Virus record (IMG/VR): IMGVR_UViG_3300029130_000029
Coordinates: 1-33,801 of that record
Origin: a virus
Direction: 5' to 3' (one strand)
DNA: 33,801 nt
Below, one piece after another: positions 1 to 33,801 of the stretch (position 1 is its first letter; every line of letters begins with the position of its first letter). Both the position numbers and the translations under genes were made by a program. Under the pieces are notes generated by a model, which was not told the DNA's origin, did not search any database, and was given only the letters and a program-made list of their open reading frames with translations.

Positions 1-212
1 GTGGCTGCGCTATAGTCGCCGGTGTTGGTGGCTGCGCTATAGTTGCCGGTGTTGGTGGCTGCGCTACAGTCGCCGGTGTTGGTGGCTGCGCTATAGTTGC
101 CGGTGTTGGTGGCTGCGCTACGGTAGCCGGTGTTGGTGGCTGCGCTATAGTCGCCGGTGTTGGTGGCTGCGCTATAGTTGCCGGTGTTGGTGGCTGCGCT
201 ACAGTCGCCGGT
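1..212. repeat. 27-bp tandem repeat array, start-of-window part (8 units)
   Basis: Unit ggtgttggtggctgcgctNNNgtNgcc repeats with exact 27-nt period. Units differ only in a 10-nt core: tatagtcgcc, tatagttgcc, tacagtcgcc or tacggtagcc. The array is in frame with the minus-strand CDS. Confidence 0.95.
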
Positions 213-3906: not shown

Positions 3907-4992
3907 ATGAAAGAAAGGACAAATACGGCAAAGTGGCTTGAGAAGCAGAACCGCTGGCAGATCGCCGTCCAGAAAGATGGCGTAAGAAAAACATTTACAA
4001 GCAGTCGGCCGGGAAGGGAAGGGCAGAGGGAAGCAAACCGAAAAGCAGATGATTGGTTGGCATCAGGCATCTGCGGGACGAAGCTGCACCTATCGGAGCT
4101 GCACGAAAGCTATATGGAGCAGCTTAAAATTCGGACTTCGCAATCGAATTGGCGACCGCAGGAAAGCCGCTGGAAAACATGGATTGACCCAAGGATAGGC
4201 CACCTAAAGGCAGATGCACTTTGCGATGGGATTTTGCAAAAGGTTATCGACTATGCATACAATAACGGGAAATTGTCGAAGAAGTATCTGCAAAGCATCC
4301 GTGCTGACATGGTTTCTTTCTGCAAATATCTGCGGAAAATGAAAGTAACCGGCTTTGCCCCGGAAGACATAACAATTCCAAAGGGAGCCCCCGTTGGCGT
4401 TCGCAACATTTTGCAGCCGGAGGACATTGTAACGCTTTTCTCCGTTGATACGACGATCTACAAGGGTAAATTGGTAAAAGATCCATATATAAATGCTTAT
4501 CGCCTTGAGGTTTTGACCGGACTGCGGCCGGGGGAATTGCGTGGCATCATGCGAAACGATTTCAAACAGGGCAGATTGGAGGTAAGGCGGTCGATAAACG
4601 AGGATAACGAAATCACTACAGGCAAAAATGAAAATGCGATACGCAGCGTTTATTTGGGCGAAATCGCAGAGGCGATTGTAAAAGATCAAGCATCCAAGTC
4701 AAACGGCCTGTATCTATTCCAAATGCCGACAACGGAAACCTATCGGAAGTTTTTCCAAAGATATTGCAAAGCAAACGGAATTCCGAAAACGACACCATAC
4801 GAGCTGCGACACACTTTCGTTTCTCTTGCACAGTCCCTCCCGGAGGGATGGGTAAAGCAATTGGTCGGCCACTCAAAAAGCATGGACACATTCGGGGTTT
4901 ACGGCCACGCTGTATCGGGGATGGATCGGCAAATAACCAGCGCACTCGATGGCGTGTTTATATCAATTCTTGGGCGGCAAGAAAAAAAGTGA
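3907..4992 (+). CDS. int: Tyrosine site-specific integrase
   Basis: ATG follows AGGAGGAG. The C-terminal catalytic region contains LTGLRPGELRGI, YELRHTFVSLA and GHSKSMDTFGVYGH (the R...HxxR...Y signature). It is adjacent to the attP-like site. Confidence 0.95.
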   Translation: MKERTNTAKWLEKQNRWQIAVQKDGVRKTFTSSRPGREGQREANRKADDWLASGICGTKLHLSELHESYMEQLKIRTSQSNWRPQESRWKTWIDPRIGHLKADALCDGILQKVIDYAYNNGKLSKKYLQSIRADMVSFCKYLRKMKVTGFAPEDITIPKGAPVGVRNILQPEDIVTLFSVDTTIYKGKLVKDPYINAYRLEVLTGLRPGELRGIMRNDFKQGRLEVRRSINEDNEITTGKNENAIRSVYLGEIAEAIVKDQASKSNGLYLFQMPTTETYRKFFQRYCKANGIPKTTPYELRHTFVSLAQSLPEGWVKQLVGHSKSMDTFGVYGHAVSGMDRQITSALDGVFISILGRQEKK

Positions 4993-7113: not shown

Positions 7114-7234
7114 TGGCTGCTTCCTCCTTTTCTTCGGTTTCTACGCCGAGGGTTTGAAGAGCTGCTTTCAGATGTTCCAGCTCTGCTTCCTGCTTTGCTT
7201 TTACTTCTTTGGCTTTTTCTGTGTAATAGCCCAT
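7103..7234 (-). CDS. Small charged coiled-coil peptide (43 aa), below the ORF-track cutoff
   Basis: ATG 7234 overlaps the TAA of the upstream fibre gene (TAATG). Its stop TGA 7105-7103 overlaps the ATG of the next gene. Sequence MGYYTEKAKEVKAKQEAELEHLKAALQTLGVETEEKEEAANAE. Confidence 0.4.
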   Translation of the reverse strand: MGYYTEKAKEVKAKQEAELEHLKAALQTLGVETEEKEEAANAE

Positions 7235-8523
7235 TAGTTCACCCCCATAATGTTAAGAGCATTAAGTGTATCAAGGATATAACTTTCGCCAGAAAGTGTT
7301 TTCCACTGATTTGTAGTTGTATCGTAAATATAAGCATTTGTGAGTTGAGCGATGTTGTTTGAATCTCCGATGTAAGCATTTCGTAAGTAGGCTTCAAATT
7401 CGGATTTTTGACCTTTTACGACTGTGAATGGATTGTCAAAACCAAAGTCTGCTTGTAGAAATAAATGATTTTGTTGCAAAACAGTCGATTGTGTAAATGT
7501 TTCTACTGAAGAAACTCCAGAACCACCAAGAAGATAAAATTTATCACCAACAAATCCACAGCAAGCTGATACTCTACTTGCGTGCAATTCAGACTCAAGC
7601 ACGTCAACGGCCAAGTTATCTAAATTTACACGAATTATCTTTTTTTGATACTGAGTAGAATCTATATTTCCAAAGATATATGCATAGCTACCGATTCTAC
7701 AGCACCTATTTGCTTGGTTCACCATATAAGGTAGTACATTGTTATTCTGAGTATATTCTTGTGTATCGACATCAAATGTCTGTATAGACTTCCGTGGGTC
7801 AAATGAGACTCTTGTTGTGCCTCCAAATACATAAACTTTGCTTCCTACTGCAACACAAGCTGCATTATAGGTTCCTTGAGCTTGTACTGGCATATTCCCA
7901 TGATAAGTAAATTTTTCTGTTGTTACATCGAAAACTGATACAGTAGCAGAGTTTATACTTCCAACATATGAACCAACAAGAAATATTTTATTGCCACTAA
8001 CACAGCCACTTGAAAAATAGTATACTTGCGTACCGGGAAAGGGATAAGAAACATTTCTTAGTGTAGTTTTTTCTCCTGTTTCCAAATCAAACTTATCTAC
8101 ATACTCGGAATCTGCTCCAACATTATGATTAAAAGTATATATGTATTTGCCAACAGTAAATGCGAGTACATAATATTGGTAAACCAGGTCTGAATAAAAA
8201 GTCGTTTTTTCTCCCGTTGTTACATCATATCTATATATATCATTTTGCTGGCTACCTGTATATGGACAAACAGAATAAATATAATTACCGTATGAACACA
8301 TTTGCGGGTAGTCATTTCTAAGCTGAGAAAAACCAACTGTCCAATTCTTTGTCTCCGTGTATTCATTTCCATAATTCAAAACAGGACTGCATTTCACGAA
8401 GTCTGGCTTACTTACCAACGGAACCCATAGTTTGCTTGTATCTACGGGAGGGGTGGAACCAAAGTCAATGTTCAAATCAGCTCCACCACCACCCAATGTA
8501 ATAGGATTTCCTAAAATACTCAT
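7234..8523 (-). CDS. Kelch-like beta-propeller tail fibre / receptor-binding protein, paralogue 2 (intact)
   Basis: About six blades carry the pattern G-x-x-[IVF]-Y-[IVL]-[FLV]-G-G/N followed by [IV]xx[FY]D[VL]xTxxxT. Examples are GSKVYVFGGT...IQTFDVDTQEYT, GDKFYLLGGSG and IYRYDVTTGEKTT. The N-terminal 45 aa or so and the C-terminal 35 aa or so are shared with paralogue 1. The likely start is ATG 8523; the track start 8529 is GTG. Confidence 0.75.
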   Translation of the reverse strand: MSILGNPITLGGGGADLNIDFGSTPPVDTSKLWVPLVSKPDFVKCSPVLNYGNEYTETKNWTVGFSQLRNDYPQMCSYGNYIYSVCPYTGSQQNDIYRYDVTTGEKTTFYSDLVYQYYVLAFTVGKYIYTFNHNVGADSEYVDKFDLETGEKTTLRNVSYPFPGTQVYYFSSGCVSGNKIFLVGSYVGSINSATVSVFDVTTEKFTYHGNMPVQAQGTYNAACVAVGSKVYVFGGTTRVSFDPRKSIQTFDVDTQEYTQNNNVLPYMVNQANRCCRIGSYAYIFGNIDSTQYQKKIIRVNLDNLAVDVLESELHASRVSACCGFVGDKFYLLGGSGVSSVETFTQSTVLQQNHLFLQADFGFDNPFTVVKGQKSEFEAYLRNAYIGDSNNIAQLTNAYIYDTTTNQWKTLSGESYILDTLNALNIMGVN

Positions 8524-8547
8524 ATTCACCCTTTCCGGGGTGATGTA

Positions 8548-9836
8548 TTAGGTCACCCCTAAGATATTCAATGCTGTCTGCATATCGTCTACATAGCTTT
8601 CGCCAGACAGCGACTTCCATTTATTTGTTGCTGTATCAAACAAATATGCTGTTTGTTCTTGAGCCGTTCCATTAGTATCTCCAAGATATACAGCAAGCGG
8701 ACAAGCGTACAAAGAAGTGTCTTTCCCTTTTACGGCTTCCCATACATCATCTGTATAGTCTGTGTTCACCAGCAAGGTTCCTGCTTCAAGTTCAAAGTTG
8801 AACTTCGTATAGACTACGCCAGCGTTGCCAAACCATGATGTATGATTTCTAAAAGAAGAAGCACCAATTACAGCAGTCGTAGGCGGTTGCCCAAGAGTTG
8901 CTGCTTTTGTCTGTGTGTATGTTTCAGGGTGCCACTGTAACAACGAAGAAAAGTCACCCTGCTTAATGTAATAAGAATTGTTGCTAATTAGCCAATGACG
9001 ATACGGTATGGAATTTCCCAGCCATCCAGAAGCAGATGTTGCATTTGTCCACTCTTTTGTGTTCAAATCAAAGATATAAATATTTGCAGTGTCGTTTGTG
9101 GTTGCAAAAACAACGGTGTCTTTTGTGTAATACACTGGATGACCCTCGACTGGACATTGGTAAAAAGTTATCCCATTTGAATCAGTGTCAAAAATTCTTA
9201 CGAAACGCTGTGAACGAACATTATATCCAGATTCGTTACCTGAAGGACTACCGCCAATAATAACAATCTTATCGCCCCACAAAAAAGCATCACAATATTC
9301 CCAGCTTTCGATGTTGTAGTTTACGGGTGCTTTTTGATAGACAACTGTTGCAGTGTTAGTAGATAAATCTACTTTCATTATTTGTTCATGTCGGCTGTAT
9401 TTCTGCGTAGTGTATGACACAGCACCACTAATAATATAAATGCAATTATTGTAATAAACACAAGGAGCAGCACCACCTGGATTTGCTGGAAGTGTTATTT
9501 GCGAAGTAATATTTTCTTGTGACCATGTGCTTTTACTTATTCGATTGACTACTTTTGTCACATATATGTATTCAGATGCAATGCCACCAAACGCATAGAT
9601 ATAATCTTCTGTTTCGCAAAGTGCCATACCATTTACCATGTTCGCTGATGTTACAGGGTGGTGTTCCTGCGTTATACTGCCAACATCGGTACGAAAGTCA
9701 ACCTTTACTGCATCCGGTTTTTTCTCCAAAGGCACCCATAGTTTAGTTGTGTCTGTCGGAGGGGTAGAACCGTAATCAATGTTGAGTTTTACCCCCCCCC
9801 GTTGGTAATAATTGGATTCCCATAGATGATGCTCAT
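8548..9836 (-). CDS. Kelch-like beta-propeller tail fibre / receptor-binding protein, paralogue 1, reading frame interrupted at a G9 homopolymer
   Basis: Track ORF 8548..9735 starts at a GTG that has no RBS. Upstream, ATG 9836 overlaps the stop of 9833..10705 (ATGA) and encodes MSIIYGNPIITNGGG before TAA (9791-9789). One frame over, VKLNIDYGSTPPTDTTKLWVPL runs into the ORF. The joined sequence aligns with the paralogue-2 N-terminus. Kelch-like blades are present (DYIYAFGG, GDKIVIIGGSPSG). Confidence 0.7.
9792..9800. repeat. C9 (G9 on the coding strand) homopolymer at the frame junction of the fibre gene
   Basis: Plus strand reads tttt-a-ccccccccc-gttgg. G10 or G7 would restore a single reading frame. 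Confidence 0.9.
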
Positions 9837-10705
9837 GCGGTTACCTCCGTTATCGTTACCTGTACCGCCATATCCGCATTGGGCTTTTCGCCCATTGCTT
9901 TGGCGGTAAGGGTACCATTGTTGTTCTCAATCCAAAGGGCAGATGTGCCGCTGTCTATGATAACGCCAAGAGCGGTTGCGTCCATCTGGATATCCACCTT
10001 GCTGTTGGCCGTAGTTCCAAGCCCGCTGATGGTTTGGCTGTACGGACTTTCGGAGCCGAGCCAAGATGCCGCAGGAAGCGAAAGCTGCTTAATAACAACC
10101 GCACGGTTTATCTTGTACTCCATCTTTCCGATGGCCTGCGTTACCGTATCTGTTGTGGTTACATTCTGCCGGGAGGTTGCCTGCTTGTAGCCGGGGATTT
10201 TGATTTGGCTGCCGGTGTAATCGCCGGTTTGCGGTGTCACCGCTCCGGTGCGGCCGTTAAAGCTCGCAACAGTACCAGGGCTGATGGTGTGCGCTACATA
10301 CTGCAAATCGGAGATCATTGTGGGCTGGGCTGTGTAAGTGGCTATCGGCAGCTGGTACACAGTACCGCTTGCATTGATATCCTCCTGCACCAGCGCCGGA
10401 AGCGGGTCTTGCGCCTGTGTCACAAAAGAAATCGGTGCTTCGGTGTTTGCCATGTCAATTTGGATAAGCAATCGACCGGGGACAGAGCCGCTGGTCGGAA
10501 GCGTCGCATTGATCGTTTGGGCTTCCACAACAAAGTTTCGGCCGAGGATTATACCACGGCCATCGGAAACATTTATGATGTTACCACCCTGTGTAGTTAC
10601 TTCAACGCCAGTAAAGATGCCGCTGTCGTTGATAATGTGGTTGTACAGATACGCATCATCCGTTGGAGTTACGATAGATGCGTTATACTGGAGCAGCGTT
10701 ATCAT
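9833..10705 (-). CDS. Tail fibre / baseplate-distal protein
   Basis: The motif FNGRTGAVTPQTGDYTGSQI recurs in phage tail-fibre proteins. It lies between the Tal-like gene and the receptor-binding genes, and both neighbours are joined by ATGA overlaps. Confidence 0.6.
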   Translation of the reverse strand: MITLLQYNASIVTPTDDAYLYNHIINDSGIFTGVEVTTQGGNIINVSDGRGIILGRNFVVEAQTINATLPTSGSVPGRLLIQIDMANTEAPISFVTQAQDPLPALVQEDINASGTVYQLPIATYTAQPTMISDLQYVAHTISPGTVASFNGRTGAVTPQTGDYTGSQIKIPGYKQATSRQNVTTTDTVTQAIGKMEYKINRAVVIKQLSLPAASWLGSESPYSQTISGLGTTANSKVDIQMDATALGVIIDSGTSALWIENNNGTLTAKAMGEKPNADMAVQVTITEVTA

Positions 10706-11757
10706 GCGTTTGCCCTCCTTTCAAGGATCAAAATTTTGGTAAGATCGGCACGGACAACGCCGAAGGTCATTTTTGTAACATCCTGCGACCTTGCATAGCC
10801 GGTAAGGATAGATTTGTAACTACTGTCGCCATCAATGACCAAAACCTCTGTGCCGATGGCCATTGAGGTATCAAGTACGCCACAGTCGTTTCGGGCAGTC
10901 AGCTCGATCATGTTGTCATACTTTTGCGGGCTTAACGCTTCGTAAGCCTTTTTGTATGCAGCAGATTCAAAATTGATATCCGTTTCCAAAAACTGCGCCG
11001 CAAAAAACACAGGTGTAATTCTGTCCGTGTTGTTTGTGTCGACATTGCCGTTAGGATGTAGATAGTAGGTTATGCGCTGCGTCTCATCGGCCTTGTTGTA
11101 GATGGTTACCTTGTTCAGCTGGCCTGTGCTGTCGCCGATGATGATGTTTTTGTCAACGATAGCCTGTAGGTTTGTTTCTATGACAGCAGTCTCGCTGACC
11201 TTGCCCACCTTAACAGAGATTGTCTTTTTCTGCGGGTCAAAGCTCATGTTGACAGCTACGCCATAAGCCGTCAGCGATTTCGTGATGATTTCGTAAAAGC
11301 TGTGGATGTTGTCCTTTAGATTGAGCGCCCCGGTCGTTTCGGAGGTCGTTTCCACCGTCATACCGGATATGTTTTGCAAAGCATCTCCAGAAGAAACAAA
11401 GTTATCTCGGATGATTGAAGCAATAAAAGGCTCGATCTTTGCAGAGGTCGTGCGATCGAAATATACCTCGGTGTCAAAAAGCGACATAAGAGGCTGCGCC
11501 GAAATCGTTACGCCCGTTTTATCTGTTTCCACATCGTCAACGATTCCCTGATAAGCTACATTCCCGTTTTGGTCTGTAACGCTTATAAAGTCGCCCTTTT
11601 TTGCATCCAGCTTTACAGCCCGGAGAGTAGTTTTTTCTACGGTCAGGTAGTCAAACTGTATCTCCGGGCTTTCAATCGGAGCAAAACTTCGGAATGTGAA
11701 ATCCCTTGCGAATACTTCGCACTTAAACAGAGTATGCAAGTTTCTCCACCTCCACAT
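10702..11757 (-). CDS. Tal-like tail tip / baseplate hub protein (siphovirus Gp37-like, short form)
   Basis: Assigned from its position directly after Dit and its size. The start is uncertain: ATG 11757 lacks an RBS, while TTG 11739 follows GGAGGTGGAG. Confidence 0.55.
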   Translation of the reverse strand: MWRWRNLHTLFKCEVFARDFTFRSFAPIESPEIQFDYLTVEKTTLRAVKLDAKKGDFISVTDQNGNVAYQGIVDDVETDKTGVTISAQPLMSLFDTEVYFDRTTSAKIEPFIASIIRDNFVSSGDALQNISGMTVETTSETTGALNLKDNIHSFYEIITKSLTAYGVAVNMSFDPQKKTISVKVGKVSETAVIETNLQAIVDKNIIIGDSTGQLNKVTIYNKADETQRITYYLHPNGNVDTNNTDRITPVFFAAQFLETDINFESAAYKKAYEALSPQKYDNMIELTARNDCGVLDTSMAIGTEVLVIDGDSSYKSILTGYARSQDVTKMTFGVVRADLTKILILERRANA

Positions 11758-12544
11758 ATGCTACGATATCCGATGTGCCGTCGTGCGAAAATGTCAAAGT
11801 GCTTTCTCCCGGCGGAGCATAGATAAATCTTCCGGTCGAAAAGTCGCTGGACTGGTACAGGTTTTGGATGTATGTCCCGTCGAGCGCATACTCTGCGATC
11901 TCCATTGTTGCAGGGTCAGCATCAACAACGAGTTTGTGTCCGTCAGGGATTGTTGCGGTTACTTTTCCGACCGCTACACGGGTACCGGCCTTGATAAGCG
12001 CCCAAGCAGGATTGACGACCGGGCCGAAGATTTGCAGTTTGCACGGTGATGCCAAATCCCCGTTTCTTATTTTTGCAGTTCCTGTTGCTGTTTCTGCGTA
12101 GTAATAAGGATAAGTGTAACTGTACCTTTTAATTCCTTGGTCTGGCGCTTGACTTTGTGTTACCTTAACAGCTTCGTGCCAAGTCCCGAAGCAGAGGAAT
12201 GTAATCGGTACTGCCAAATAGCCGGATTTCAGTTCCGACTTATCCGCAGACTGCACTTCACACTTGATTTTGTACCATGTGTCCAGCGGGGAATACATCA
12301 GGTAAAGCGGGCCTTTTGTCACGAACGAAATAAACGCCTGATACCGGGAATAGTCGAAGAATATCATTTCGCCTGTCACGGCATACTGGTTAAGGAATTC
12401 ATCCGATACCAGCCATGCGCTTCCGGCTTGGATGGTGGAGTAGGTTTTGCCAAAGCCTAATCCACCTGGCGCATTGAAGTACGCCGTTTTGTCCATCAAA
12501 TCCCATTCGGCGCCGACACCGTTCTTGAGCTTAAATTTTCTCAT
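11723..12544 (-). CDS. Distal tail protein (Dit)
   Basis: Immediately follows the tape measure gene, with its ATG overlapping the TMP stop (TGATG). The size is typical, and the beta-rich sequence resembles siphovirus tail-component family proteins. Confidence 0.7.
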   Translation of the reverse strand: MRKFKLKNGVGAEWDLMDKTAYFNAPGGLGFGKTYSTIQAGSAWLVSDEFLNQYAVTGEMIFFDYSRYQAFISFVTKGPLYLMYSPLDTWYKIKCEVQSADKSELKSGYLAVPITFLCFGTWHEAVKVTQSQAPDQGIKRYSYTYPYYYAETATGTAKIRNGDLASPCKLQIFGPVVNPAWALIKAGTRVAVGKVTATIPDGHKLVVDADPATMEIAEYALDGTYIQNLYQSSDFSTGRFIYAPPGESTLTFSHDGTSDIVAYVEVEKLAYSV

Positions 12545-14883
12545 CAGTAAGCCCTCCCAAGCGCACGGTTGACCGCCTGTACCAAGTTCCTTGCGGCAGC
12601 TTCACCGGCTGCGTTATCGTAGCCGTTAAATGTGTTGTTCATTTCGATGGTGATGCCGCCACGGTCGTTTCCGTTCAGTGGCATAACATGGGCACGGCCA
12701 CCGGCCATGGTAAGCAGCTCCGGCCCGGCTTCGCCGACGATGGCGCTGCCGGAGGACAAAACTCCGCCCTTGGCAAGATAAGCAATTTTTCCGATGGTCG
12801 GAATATTAAATCCGAGGGACTTACCGCCCAAAACAGGAACCCAATCCGGAACATCAAAGTGAATGCTGTTAAGGCCGTTTATCATCCAGTTAATGGCGTC
12901 AATAACCATGTTGATAAGGCCGATGATTCCATTAAGAGGAGCCTTTGCAATCGCCACAAGGGCTGTAAAGATGCCCTTAAAGATTTCCTGAACACCTGTC
13001 CATGCTCTTTCCCAGTCCCCCGTGAATACGCCACGGATGAAATCGATAATACCGTCAAAAACGGCCTTTATGGAATCCCAAATAGATTTTACTGTTGCGA
13101 AGAAGAAATTTAAGATTTCCCCCAATATTCCGAACGATTCCGACCAATCCGTCGTAAATACGCCCTGCAAGAAATCATCCACACGCTGGAGAATGGCTTG
13201 TATCTCGTCTCCACTTGTTGCAATCCAAGCAACAAGTCCTACAATGGCCGCTATGAGCAGCACGATAGGATTTGCAATTATGAAATTTATGGCCGTTATC
13301 AGCGCCGGGATAACCGTTCCAGTTATAAAACTGATGGCTCCGGCAATTCCCGAAATAATGCCTGCAATCGGGGAAATCGCCGCAATAAGACCGCCGACAA
13401 TAAGGATTGTCTTTTTGACCCCATCGTCGAGGTTTGAAAACCAATCGATTGCATTTTGAAGCCCTGCGACGATTTTATTGATAATCGGCAGCAGGATATC
13501 ACCGATAGAGATTGCCAAGTTATTGAGCCCGTTTCGGAGTATTTTCATCTGGCTTTCGGTCGTTGCGTATCTTTTGCTTGCCTCGTTGGAGAGGGCAATA
13601 TTTTCGTCCCACGCAGTATTTGCGGTTGTAACAGCATCGTCCAATACATCGGACGCAAGGGCTAACGCACGAAGCATATTGGACTGGCGAATCCCGGAGA
13701 GCCCCAATTTATCCAATACAGAGATTGTGTCCTCTCCATTTTCGTTCATCTTCCCAAGCCCGCCGATGAAAGCACTGATTGCGTCCATCGGTTCATTGCC
13801 CCACATATCTGCGAATTCAGAAGCAGATGCACCAGCGATCTTTGCAAATGTTTCAAGATCATCACCGCCAGCAGACACAGCCTTGCTTATTGCGGTCATT
13901 GTTTGGGTCATTGCCGTACCGCCTGCCTCTGCGTTGATGCCAACAGAGGACATTGCGGTGGACAATGCAAGGATATCCTGTTCGGACAACCCGGCAACTG
14001 TACCAGCAGACGCAAGGCGGGTAGCCATCTCAACAATATCGCGCTCTGTTGTGGCGAAGTTGTTGCCAAGGTCAACGATGGTACTGCCGAGTTTGGAGTA
14101 TTCATCAGCGGTCGTTCCGGTAATGTTGGCAAATTTGGCAAGTGCAGAGGCAGCTTCATCAGCGGAAAGGTTTGTTGCTTCGCCCAAGTCGATCATAACG
14201 CGGGTAAAGTCAAGTACATCATCGGTGGCAATACCCAACTGTCCAGCAGCTTCCGCAACCGCCGCAATCTCCGTAGTGGACGCAGGAATTTCTTCTGCCA
14301 TGTCCAATATGCCCTGCCGGAGTGCCGCAAGCTGCTCTGAAGTGCCGTCTACTGTTTTTTCAACGCCAGCAAAGGCGCTTTCGAATTCTACAGCCGCTTT
14401 TGTGGCTGCCACTCCTGCTCCTGCAAAGGCCAAAGATGCCGGTGCAAACTTCTTTGCAATGTTCCCGGACTTTTCGGCGATCTCGCCGGTAACTGCGGAA
14501 ACCTGTGCAAGCGCCGCACGGCTCTTGGATGCTTCTGCCTGTAGGTCTTTCAGTTTCAGCTCGGCGCTGGTCAGTTCCTGGACTAACTCACGGTATTGTT
14601 TTTGGTTGACCTCCGTTCCTGCGGCCATTTCTTGATCCGCTTGCTTTTTGGCGTTCCGGAGGCTTTCAACCTTGTTTTCTGTATTTTTGATTTGATCCCC
14701 GAGCAATTGTTCCTTTTGTTTGAGCAGGTCAATATTGGTCGGGTCGAGTTTCAGCAGGCGATTGACCTTATTAAGCTCCGATTGTGTTCCACCGATTTCT
14801 CTGTTCAGCGAGCCGAGCGCTTTTGACAATCCCGTTGTATTGCCGCCGATTTCAACAACGATGCCTTTAACCTTTTCAGCCAA
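12544..14883 (-). CDS. Tail tape measure protein
   Basis: The longest gene. It has a helical N-terminus, an Ala/Gly-rich core and hydrophobic segments (ILIVGGLIAAISPIAGIISGIAGAISFITG). The likely TTG start at 14883 lies 8 nt after AGGAGG and overlaps the stop of the chaperone frameshift product. The track start 14910 is GTG. Confidence 0.9.
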   Translation of the reverse strand: MAEKVKGIVVEIGGNTTGLSKALGSLNREIGGTQSELNKVNRLLKLDPTNIDLLKQKEQLLGDQIKNTENKVESLRNAKKQADQEMAAGTEVNQKQYRELVQELTSAELKLKDLQAEASKSRAALAQVSAVTGEIAEKSGNIAKKFAPASLAFAGAGVAATKAAVEFESAFAGVEKTVDGTSEQLAALRQGILDMAEEIPASTTEIAAVAEAAGQLGIATDDVLDFTRVMIDLGEATNLSADEAASALAKFANITGTTADEYSKLGSTIVDLGNNFATTERDIVEMATRLASAGTVAGLSEQDILALSTAMSSVGINAEAGGTAMTQTMTAISKAVSAGGDDLETFAKIAGASASEFADMWGNEPMDAISAFIGGLGKMNENGEDTISVLDKLGLSGIRQSNMLRALALASDVLDDAVTTANTAWDENIALSNEASKRYATTESQMKILRNGLNNLAISIGDILLPIINKIVAGLQNAIDWFSNLDDGVKKTILIVGGLIAAISPIAGIISGIAGAISFITGTVIPALITAINFIIANPIVLLIAAIVGLVAWIATSGDEIQAILQRVDDFLQGVFTTDWSESFGILGEILNFFFATVKSIWDSIKAVFDGIIDFIRGVFTGDWERAWTGVQEIFKGIFTALVAIAKAPLNGIIGLINMVIDAINWMINGLNSIHFDVPDWVPVLGGKSLGFNIPTIGKIAYLAKGGVLSSGSAIVGEAGPELLTMAGGRAHVMPLNGNDRGGITIEMNNTFNGYDNAAGEAAARNLVQAVNRALGRAY

Positions 14884-15094
14884 TCTTACCACCTCCTGCG
14901 AAGAAATCACGCAAGCCGCCGGGTCTGCCCTTTATGGCATACTGTTCTGCATCATTGGCCTTTTCGATCATTAAATCGTAGACCATTCCGCAGGTCATGT
15001 CCTCCAGCGCTTCATCGGATAACCCGAGTTCAGCGCAGCGGAGCATAAAGGTTGACCCGGTGGGCTCACGCACGGTTTGTTTTATTTTTTTTTT
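14876..15094 (-). CDS. gpT-like extension of the tail assembly chaperone, reached by a -1 frameshift (fusion product 15423 to 14876)
   Basis: The -1 frame is open through the A10 run and continues ...KIKQTVREPTGSTFMLRCAELGLSDEALEDMTCGMVYDLMIEKANDAEQY... to TGA 14878-14876. The track shows it only as an RBS-less GTG ORF, 14876..15073. Confidence 0.7.
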   Translation of the reverse strand, partial: KKKIKQTVREPTGSTFMLRCAELGLSDEALEDMTCGMVYDLMIEKANDAEQYAIKGRPGGLRDFFAGGGKIG

Positions 15095-15423
15095 GGAACA
15101 GCGGTAGTCTTGTTGTTAAGGCTCCAAAGCTCCAAAATGGCAGGAAGCACTTTATAGATGGAGAACATCTCAAACTGCTCCAGCCACTCGTCAACATTGT
15201 CCGGGATGGATCCGTCATATTGCCGAGCCATGATAAAAGCGACATCCTCAAAGATTTCAAGATCGCTTACGGAAAAAGATCCGTCCTCGGATGTCGCTGC
15301 CGTTTGTAGCTTTTGAAGGTCACGCACAATGTCCCGACCCACTTTGTGGCGGTAAATTCGTGGGGTAAGCGCATTAGCGCATAACCCTACGCTTTTTCCG
15401 TCGATCTCGATTACTTTGTTCAT
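15082..15423 (-). CDS. Tail assembly chaperone (gpG-like)
   Basis: Lies between the major tail protein and the tape measure. It ends ...TTAVPKKK-TAA within a slippery A-run. Confidence 0.75.
   Translation of the reverse strand: MNKVIEIDGKSVGLCANALTPRIYRHKVGRDIVRDLQKLQTAATSEDGSFSVSDLEIFEDVAFIMARQYDGSIPDNVDEWLEQFEMFSIYKVLPAILELWSLNNKTTAVPKKK
15085..15094 (-). promoter_or_regulatory. Slippery A10 run (T10 on the plus strand) for -1 programmed ribosomal frameshift
   Basis: The minus strand reads CCA AAA AAA AAA TAA, which contains A_AAA_AAA heptamers immediately before the 0-frame stop. Confidence 0.7.
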
Positions 15424-22807: not shown

Positions 22808-22905
22808 GGCTTCCCCTTTCTCAAAAATATACCGTAGAGTTGGAAAAAGTTCCCCCCGCCGGTCCCCATAGACAGGCGGAAGGCGCAACGGATAGGGGGG
22901 GGGTA

Positions 22906-33374: not shown

Positions 33375-33801
33375 GCTTCCACGACCTCCCCATTTTCCAG
33401 TTTGTAAAATACCCCGGGTTTTATGGTCTCACCATCTACCTTTACAGCTCGCACCTCTTTAATGGGGAAAGTATCACCGTTCCAGCCACCCCTATCGGTT
33501 AGGACGAGCCAGCATCCAAGGGCGCCGGATGCATTACTATCAACTCCGGTGACGATTGCAATAGACTCCTTTCCATCAACGGTGGCTGCGCTACGGTAGC
33601 CGGTGTTGGTGGCTGCGCTATAGTCGCCGGTGTTGGTGGCTGCGCTACAGTCGCCGGTGTTGGTGGCTGCGCTATAGTTGCCGGTGTTGGTGGCTGCGCT
33701 ACGGTAGCCGGTGTTGGTGGCTGCGCTATAGTCGCCGGTGTTGGTGGCTGCGCTATAGTTGCCGGTGTTGGTGGCTGCGCTACAGTCGCCGGTGTTGGTG
33801 G
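33371..33801 (-). CDS. C-terminal part of the tandem-repeat early protein (continues from 539..1 across the junction)
   Basis: Open to the window edge, so absent from the ORF track. It is in the same frame as the repeats and ends ...SAATVDGKESIAIVTGVDSNASGALGCWLVLTDRGGWNGDTFPIKEVRAVKVDGETIKPGVFYKLENGEVVEA-TGA (33373-33371). With the 85-nt overlap collapsed, the joined CDS is 885 nt (294 aa), an exact multiple of 3. Confidence 0.75.
   Translation of the reverse strand, partial: TNTGDCSAATNTGNYSAATNTGDYSAATNTGYRSAATNTGNYSAATNTGDCSAATNTGDYSAATNTGYRSAATVDGKESIAIVTGVDSNASGALGCWLVLTDRGGWNGDTFPIKEVRAVKVDGETIKPGVFYKLENGEVVEA
33581..33801. repeat. 27-bp tandem repeat array, end-of-window part (8 units)
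   Basis: Same unit as nt 1-212. The last three units plus 11 nt (33717-33801) equal nt 1-85 exactly. Confidence 0.95.

Follow-up and report, generated by a model that had tools for sequence, protein, structure and literature searches.

Hypermutable polyG tracts of 7-11 G are found in receptor-binding-protein (RBP) genes of the Fletchervirus phages of Campylobacter, as reported by Sorensen et al. (2021, Cell Rep 35:109214). The present study concerns a run of nine G near the start of the first of two Kelch-propeller genes in IMG/VR record IMGVR_UViG_3300029130_000029, the 33,801 nucleotides (nt) of which make up the stretch that was analysed, here called the window. The two genes are referred to as slot 1 and slot 2, and coordinates of the fibre locus are on the minus strand unless stated. 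The run is likely to act as a contingency locus at which slipped-strand length changes switch the first of two putative RBPs on and off, the window being in the OFF state.

The Fletchervirus systems resemble this locus in having a G homopolymer in an RBP gene (a putative one in our case), a reading frame that shifts with tract length and subpopulations with different RBP repertoires. They also carry several RBP genes per phage, with tracts in only some of them. On the other hand, the Fletchervirus phages are virulent myoviruses of a Gram-negative pathogen with polyG phase-variable receptors, whereas the window comes from a temperate siphovirus whose host is an uncultured, Gram-positive anaerobe of the gut. 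Here the tract is placed in a conserved leader/linker module common to ~20 interchangeable Kelch-propeller bodies, and switching and its phenotype are predicted. No sequence relationship was found by megablast and tblastn against GenBank phages; the analogy is one of mechanism only: a poly-G switch known from Campylobacter phages would work in the same way, on unrelated sequence, in prophages of gut Clostridia.

Bacterial contingency loci of C. jejuni, Neisseria and Haemophilus (Bayliss et al. 2012, PMC3401435) likewise have an intragenic homopolymer near the 5' end, one ON and two OFF classes with early stops, lengths confined to 7-12 with a mode of 9, and interrupted "locked" alleles. For the bona fide phase-variable polyG tracts of C. 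jejuni, a mode of 9 has been reported and attributed to an insertion bias at G8 and a deletion bias at G11 (PMC3401435). Unlike these bacterial surface or modification genes, the present one is a phage structural gene, copied by the replication machinery of the host both as a prophage and in lytic growth. The contingency loci of T2/T4 (agt, rIIA) and other lytic phages are similar in that short homopolymers in open reading frames (ORFs) give reversible frameshifts and population heterogeneity, but they are mostly A/T-type repeats of at least 6 nt in defence-evasion and other genes, not a long G run conserved in a tail gene; simple sequence repeats are in fact under-represented in coliphage tail fibre genes (Gomez, Barrick and Waters, bioRxiv 10.1101/2025.10.21.683753). 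Phage adsorption proteins are also diversified within a population by DNA inversion (Mu G segment, P1 C segment) and, in gut prophages, by diversity-generating retroelements. These devices depend on a site-specific recombinase and a reverse transcriptase, neither of which adjoins the fibre locus.

The locus in the window is composed of the following features.

9848-9844, minus strand: Shine-Dalgarno (SD) sequence GGAGG, 7 nt 5' of ATG 9836, read from the sequence and kept in all related loci
9836-9789, minus strand: leader ORF in the G9 state, MSIIYGNPIITNGGG and then TAA, the first 12 codons being the conserved N-terminal leader of the family
9800-9792, minus strand: hypermutable poly-G tract, G9 and out of frame here (C9 on the plus strand), the Gly linker between leader and body, of varying length in relatives
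8548..9792, minus strand: slot-1 body, 414 codons from GTA 9792, with conserved VKLNIDYGSTPP...KLWVPL, a six-bladed Kelch beta-propeller and a conserved C-terminal stretch of ~90 amino acids (aa)
9776..9823, minus strand: third-frame ATG 9823-9821 with stop TGA 9778-9776 in the window, the basis of gene calls P0001 and P0126, probably incidental
7234..8523, minus strand: slot-2 paralogue, a Kelch propeller of 429 aa from ATG 8523 with a mixed-codon GGGG linker, serving as stable internal control
9833..10705, minus strand: upstream tail gene of 290 aa, translationally coupled (ATGA) to the leader ATG and always directly upstream in relatives

The leader ATG (9836-9834) shares the letters ATGA with the stop codon TGA 9835-9833 of the upstream gene, and is followed by the codons AGC ATC ATC TAT GGG AAT CCA ATT ATT ACC AAC GGG GGG GGG TAA, in which the tract forms codons 13-15. 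The body lies in the -1 frame relative to the leader, in an ORF that is open from 9840 and ends with the stop codon 8550-8548; the earliest canonical start of the body frame is GTG 9735, which would give 395 aa. The claim of the original prediction that start and body lie in different frames which meet within G9 (9792-9800), between the ATGA-coupled ATG 9836 and TAA 9791-9789, was confirmed in the sequence in every part, as was its statement that the large ORF is left with GTG 9735. Addition of one G (G10) or removal of two (G7) unites the two frames in one ORF, of 429 or 428 aa respectively, that begins MSIIYGNPIITNGG(G)VKLNIDYG. The G10 product had been anticipated from the window and occurs verbatim in another sample (protein P0124, locus L026; 429 aa). 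In general, tracts of 3n+1 nt give the full ORF, those of 3n nt meet TAA directly after the tract, and those of 3n+2 nt meet TGA five codons on.

The split-frame G9 arrangement is correct as described and non-random. Homopolymers of at least 9 bases number only three in the window, and two of them are G/C runs of nine on either strand, where 0.27 would be expected (5 of 100 shuffles reach two). GGG is the rarest Gly codon of the late genes (51/366, 14%), and three consecutive GGG codons have a probability of p = 0.0027 from codon usage.

Two other ways of starting the protein were considered and rejected. The third-frame ATG 9823, which the original prediction does not mention, leads into the body only with tracts of 8 or 11 nt, and it has been used by gene callers (P0001, MGIQLLPTGGVKLN...). 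A three-level switch by way of this ATG, as in Haemophilus lic1, was dismissed, since the ATG is without SD and is missing from 18 of 67 loci, which have TAC for TAT. Re-initiation inside the gene, past the tract, was judged non-functional because the only in-frame candidates, an ATT 11 nt past the run and GTG 9735, would remove the conserved LNIDYG...KLWVPL segment.

Related loci were collected by exact-protein look-ups, from portal-anchored relatives and with a gapped DNA pattern; the samples in which they were found are human-gut metagenomes. A comparison of the tract in related phage genomes, proposed along with the original prediction, showed it to be present and variable, with lengths of 7, 8, 9 (the mode), 10, 11 or 12 nt across 66 loci from independent assemblies. 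A G13 tract is implied at the protein level only, by family N-termini. The slot-1 body of the window itself is found in 28 other assemblies with the alleles TG7 (8), G8 (2), TG8 (6), G9 (8), G10 (1), G11 (1), G3TG7 (1) and G12 (2). Portal-anchored relatives with other propeller bodies behind the same leader have G10 (3), G9 (3) or an in-frame G8TG. The gapped pattern, which used only the flanks and was run on IMG/VR and ENA/JGI contigs, added 31 further loci with 7 (1), 8 (3), 9 (17), 10 (6) or 11 (4) nt. Slot-1 lengths are unimodal at 9, in agreement with the phase-variable polyG tracts of C. jejuni. In-frame lengths make up 7/31 (p=0.25) and 11/38 (p=0.61) in the unbiased sets, no different from one third.

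The same variation is seen in gene calls. A body 100% identical to that of the window has, in the protein search, a call MGIQLLPTGG-VKLN from ATG 9823, which requires an 8-nt tract, and the 90% protein cluster of this body contains calls of 424, 425, 395, 363, 423 and 429 aa. Among the N-termini of 104 family representatives, in-frame linkers read GG (14), GGG (48) or GGGG (1), accompanied by interrupted variants, eight alternative-frame calls and seven truncated calls.

Tract length varies inside every body class with more than one member, which means that length changes are recurrent. The site is exceptionally mutable in comparison with others: among contig pairs with at most two substitutions over more than 2.5 kb, 17 of 31 differ at the tract, and not a single other indel column was found. 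Two internal controls did not vary. The slot-2 paralogue encodes MSILGNPITLGGGGADLNIDFG with linker codons GGT GGT GGT GGA, and this linker showed no length change in 22/22 loci; the original prediction was thus right that the paralogue has a mixed-codon Gly run and that the homopolymer is specific to the first copy. The second control is the A10 run of the tail-assembly-chaperone frameshift site, which has length 10 in 11/11 related loci.

15082-15423 and 14876-15094, minus strand: tail-assembly-chaperone G/GT programmed -1 frameshift, with a 113-aa ORF that ends CCA AAA AAA AAA TAA (A10 = 15094-15085)

The -1 frame from A10 is open for 69 codons and stops at the start of the tape-measure gene. 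Both the G/GT site and the poly-G site are homopolymers at which two frames of a tail-module gene meet, but the former is a canonical A_AAA_AAA of constant length with two functional products, the 113-aa G and G with the 69-aa T extension.

The tract is, moreover, kept. In 51 family members, conservation reaches 90% or more at leader residues M, S, I, G, N, P and I, indicating that leader and body in one frame constitute the native protein, and both Kelch proteins share the pattern MS-I-x-GNPI-, Gly linker, -LNIDYG-. Around the tract, four-fold sites are saturated with synonymous change: the Gly6 codon of the leader is GGG (38), GGT (15), GGC (12) or GGA (1) across loci, and the nearby Pro uses all four codons. 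The slot-1 linker stays pure G except in a few interrupted alleles. With neighbouring sites saturated and GGG the rarest Gly codon, this purity is not explained by drift. Pure runs are also found with other leader variants (AGC-G10, AAC-G7 and GGA-G8-C, that is GGA GGG GGG GGC), and ~20 distinct propeller bodies stand behind the same 12-residue leader. Slot 2 always has mixed Gly codons that drift between lineages, distant relatives included, and never the tract.

Some observations concern the leader as a module. In two relatives (L036, and L037 from 20883 onward) and in L073 (13466-14461), a DUF6273 protein occupies the first tail-tip slot instead of the Kelch propeller. The DUF6273 proteins of L036/L037 carry the same MSIIYGNPII leader with the mixed Gly codons GGT GGT GGC GGC, which suggests that the leader is a shared docking or recombination module for unrelated distal domains. 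Six contigs (L019, L020, L024, L025, L026 and L028) end ~10-20 nt from the slot-2 start codon (...GAATATGAGTATTT). Such ends point to branching of the assembly graph, as expected at a recombination boundary if strains share cassettes but differ in their flanks.

The slot-1 protein matches the Pfam Kelch families PF13964, PF01344, PF07646 and PF13418 above their curated cut-offs; a match to PF24681 (E 4e-12, 46.4 bits) is below the 50-bit cut-off of that family. The AlphaFold model (predicted local distance difference test, pLDDT, 85; predicted template modelling score, pTM, 0.77) is a six-bladed propeller with PDB matches to the Kelch domains of KLHDC10, LZTR1 and KEAP1 (E~1e-12), and the best viral structural matches (BFVD) are uncharacterised gut-virome proteins and virion proteins of jumbo phages. 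The gene comes last in the tail module, on its distal side: it follows the genes for the tape measure, Dit and tail proteins and precedes the lysis genes.

10702-11757, minus strand: tail protein (PHROGs and Pfam matches)
11723-12544, minus strand: Dit (PHROGs and Pfam matches)
12544-14910, minus strand: tape measure (PHROGs and Pfam matches)

Given the order of these three genes, the Kelch pair belongs to the distal-tail/baseplate end of the module. From this position, the fold, family ends that are conserved around a variable middle and the exchange of cassettes, it is reasonable to infer that the slot-1 protein is a receptor-binding or tail-fibre protein.

A contingency locus in slot 1 would account for these findings as follows. 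Slipped-strand mispairing in DNA replication would add G's to the slot-1 linker or remove them, presumably at a high rate within the phage population. Lengths of 3n+1 (7, 10, 13) would fuse the propeller body to the leader, which is driven by the SD and coupled through ATGA (ON), while lengths of 3n (9, 12) and 3n+2 (8, 11) would turn the gene OFF through early stops; the window would represent the modal OFF state. The population would then be a mix of genomes with and without protein 1, with protein 2, encoded with mixed Gly codons, always made, and such a mix may diversify adsorption specificity as a form of bet-hedging. Several marks of a contingency locus were found here, namely an intragenic repeat near the 5' end that is long enough to be unstable (at least 7-8 G/C), is polymorphic among close relatives far beyond the background rate of indels, has frames that map to ON and OFF, and is kept against synonymous drift. 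Slipped-strand phase variation, the first of three readings put forward originally, is strongly supported by tract lengths from 7 to 13 that differ even between otherwise identical contigs. The body ORF is intact in 29/29 copies of this allele, and across classes most OFF bodies are full-length ORFs of 407-441 codons. The reading can be extended to two layers of control, with slippage setting ON (G10/G7), LEAKY (G9) and NULL (G8/G11) states, a -1 slip of the ribosome or RNA polymerase in the LEAKY state, graded RBP stoichiometry and a leader that would serve as a portable module for any Kelch-propeller cassette in human-gut Clostridia prophages; we consider this extension unlikely.

Several points weigh against a contingency locus. 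The body of the window is in frame in only 1 of ~37 contigs, albeit contigs that share ancestry, so that the figure is not to be over-read; this rare in-frame state could mean that the gene is silent or dispensable, or that it is expressed by another route. The tract evidence is polymorphism between samples, read from consensus assemblies. A few OFF alleles are further damaged: L063 has a second frameshift ~35 codons past the tract, and in L053 and L057, both OFF and truncated, unrelated sequence replaces the body after codon 226. Such lesions would be expected if copies that are OFF for long decay. Recombination may also keep the leader module uniform at the nucleotide level, as the leader flanks exchangeable cassettes, and the purity of the tract could in part stem from this instead of from selection for a mutable tract. 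Finally, the tail-fibre/receptor-binding label given in the original prediction is reasonable given position, fold and cassette-like diversity, but was not backed by homology. The slot-1 protein had zero matches to PHROG families, no characterised phage RBP was among the top PDB or BFVD matches, and GenBank phages gave no match by megablast of 7200-10800 or by tblastn of the repaired protein. A locus search for relatives of the repaired protein in IMG/VR and GTDB species genomes confirmed none.

The tract might instead be a neutral hot-spot in a dispensable, decaying gene, with protein 2 sufficient for the phage and the OFF copies on their way to becoming pseudogenes without any adaptive switching. 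That in-frame alleles do not exceed the chance value of one third, that so few contigs of this body are in frame and that some OFF alleles carry extra lesions would all fit with decay. A benefit from the tract is not required either, given that homopolymers are under-represented in coliphage tail fibre genes (Gomez et al., bioRxiv 10.1101/2025.10.21.683753). However, a neutral or deleterious tract should soon be interrupted, and the slot-1 tract is pure across ~20 divergent bodies and at least three leader variants despite the saturated synonymous sites and the rarity of GGG. The leader peptide is conserved at the protein level, the great majority of OFF bodies are still full-length and the tract never appears in slot 2, all of which makes neutral decay quite unlikely in our view.

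Recoding as the main route of expression, the second of the original readings, would mean that G9 is the wild-type, working state, in which low-level synthesis of the full-length protein keeps the stoichiometry of protein 1 low. The route could be a -1 slip of the P-site tRNA-Gly on G_GGG_GGG with a slow TAA in the A site, or slippage of RNA polymerase on the G run. Because the stop directly follows G9, a -1 P-site slip (GGG-TAA -> GTA) would yield exactly the G10 protein. G9 is the modal length (17/31 in the unbiased scan; for this body, the window and 8/28 other assemblies), the majority of OFF bodies are intact, and OFF genomes occur in apparently complete circular phage assemblies, including the window with its 85-nt terminal repeat. 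The mode of 9 is, on the other hand, explained by the mutational bias of polyG. Contrary to what recoding would predict, the length of the site is unconserved (7-13 nt), even between otherwise identical contigs, and all three frame relationships occur, whereas the genuine A10 G/GT site is constant. The common 8- or 11-nt alleles would need a shift in the opposite direction, and the wider family has plenty of in-frame alleles, G10 and G7. Although G_GGG_GGG with TAA permits P-site re-pairing, it is not a canonical X_XXY_YYZ motif of known efficiency. No SD-like stimulator is present upstream and no significant structure downstream (102 nt, z=-0.92), the sole notable helix being one that uses the G run itself (z=-1.67). 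The 0-frame product is merely 15 aa, so the two-product logic of recoding sites is missing. A programmed -1 frameshift is disfavoured as the main route, and recoding in that role is distinctly unlikely, but it may leak in the G9 state.

In the helix mentioned above (RNA 9800-9745), the G run can pair with a downstream CCCCUCC that encodes Thr-Pro-Pro, in a 9-bp stem with a 25-nt spacer; its z-score of -1.67 is not significant. The CCCCUCC partner is constrained by the conserved TPP motif.

The last of the original readings, a homopolymer sequencing or assembly error in a true G10 genome, could appeal to the error-prone nature of 9-10-base runs in library PCR and on some platforms and to a G9 just one base short of the in-frame length, but is highly improbable and, as a simple error, essentially refuted, as G9 recurs in many independent assemblies made with different assemblers in different studies, including at 339x (L015, ERZ773249 NODE_2025) and 1203x (L064, ERZ856578 NODE_43658), longer tracts of G10-G12 were assembled elsewhere, the interrupted alleles TG7 and TG8 show the same length variation, and A10, the paralogue linker and all other homopolymers in these contigs do not vary.

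Temperate gut phages that have uncultured Clostridia as hosts are very difficult to work on, and little is understood of the ways in which they deal with variation of the host surface. To our knowledge, the devices so far discussed for prophages are diversity-generating retroelements and invertible segments. A poly-G switch on swappable propeller tail proteins, with a switchable slot 1 set against a constitutive slot 2 and found across dozens of human samples, would carry the idea of phage contingency loci beyond lytic phages, those of Campylobacter and the T-even group, to temperate ones that infect gut commensals. A comparison of tract length between virome and bulk reads would offer a directly testable marker for tracking phage adsorption states in vivo. 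For annotators, truncated or alternative-frame "hypothetical proteins" at this locus would be switch states and not separate genes.

The window represents a temperate siphovirus of ~33.7 kb, the host of which is an uncultured, Angelakisella-like member of the Oscillospiraceae from the human gut. PHROGs and Pfam identified an integrase (3907-4992), TerS, TerL, portal, protease, capsid, major tail protein and chaperone; the late order continues with the tape measure, Dit, tail protein, the 290-aa protein, the two Kelch-repeat genes, a CBM5/12 protein and an amidase endolysin. No PHROGs or Pfam family was assigned to the 290-aa protein. In two relatives (L071 and L072; 11087-21086) the prophage is integrated beside genes for a KsgA-type rRNA methyltransferase and Rex, and bacterial genes follow the same integrase that in the window adjoins the endolysin. 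Genes for a CoA-transferase and a crotonase in the flank belong to an uncultured bacterium of Ruminococcaceae/Angelakisella-like type, the CoA-transferase being 98% identical to that of an uncultured Ruminococcaceae metagenome-assembled genome (MAG) and 89% identical to those of Angelakisella MAGs.

A 27-nt tandem array is found at both ends of the window (1-212 and 33581-33801; ~8 copies each, 92% matches), and the window has an exact terminal direct repeat of 85 nt. Together with the integrase-endolysin junction, these terminal repeats make the window look like a circular (excised) assembly of ~33.7 kb, and they suggest that the circle was opened inside the 27-nt array. The period of the array would equal 9 aa if coding.

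The other nine-base G/C run of the window is intergenic.

22895-22903, plus strand (C9 on the minus strand): second 9-base G/C run, ~90 nt 5' of TerS as called in relatives and 3' of an HNH gene

This run was considered as a neutral poly-G control and can serve as a partial one only, since it has two lineage-linked alleles, C7 and C9. C9 is present in the window and in L034, and C7 in nine other relatives, one of which has an extra T before it. The HNH-TerS interval is the usual place of cos sites.

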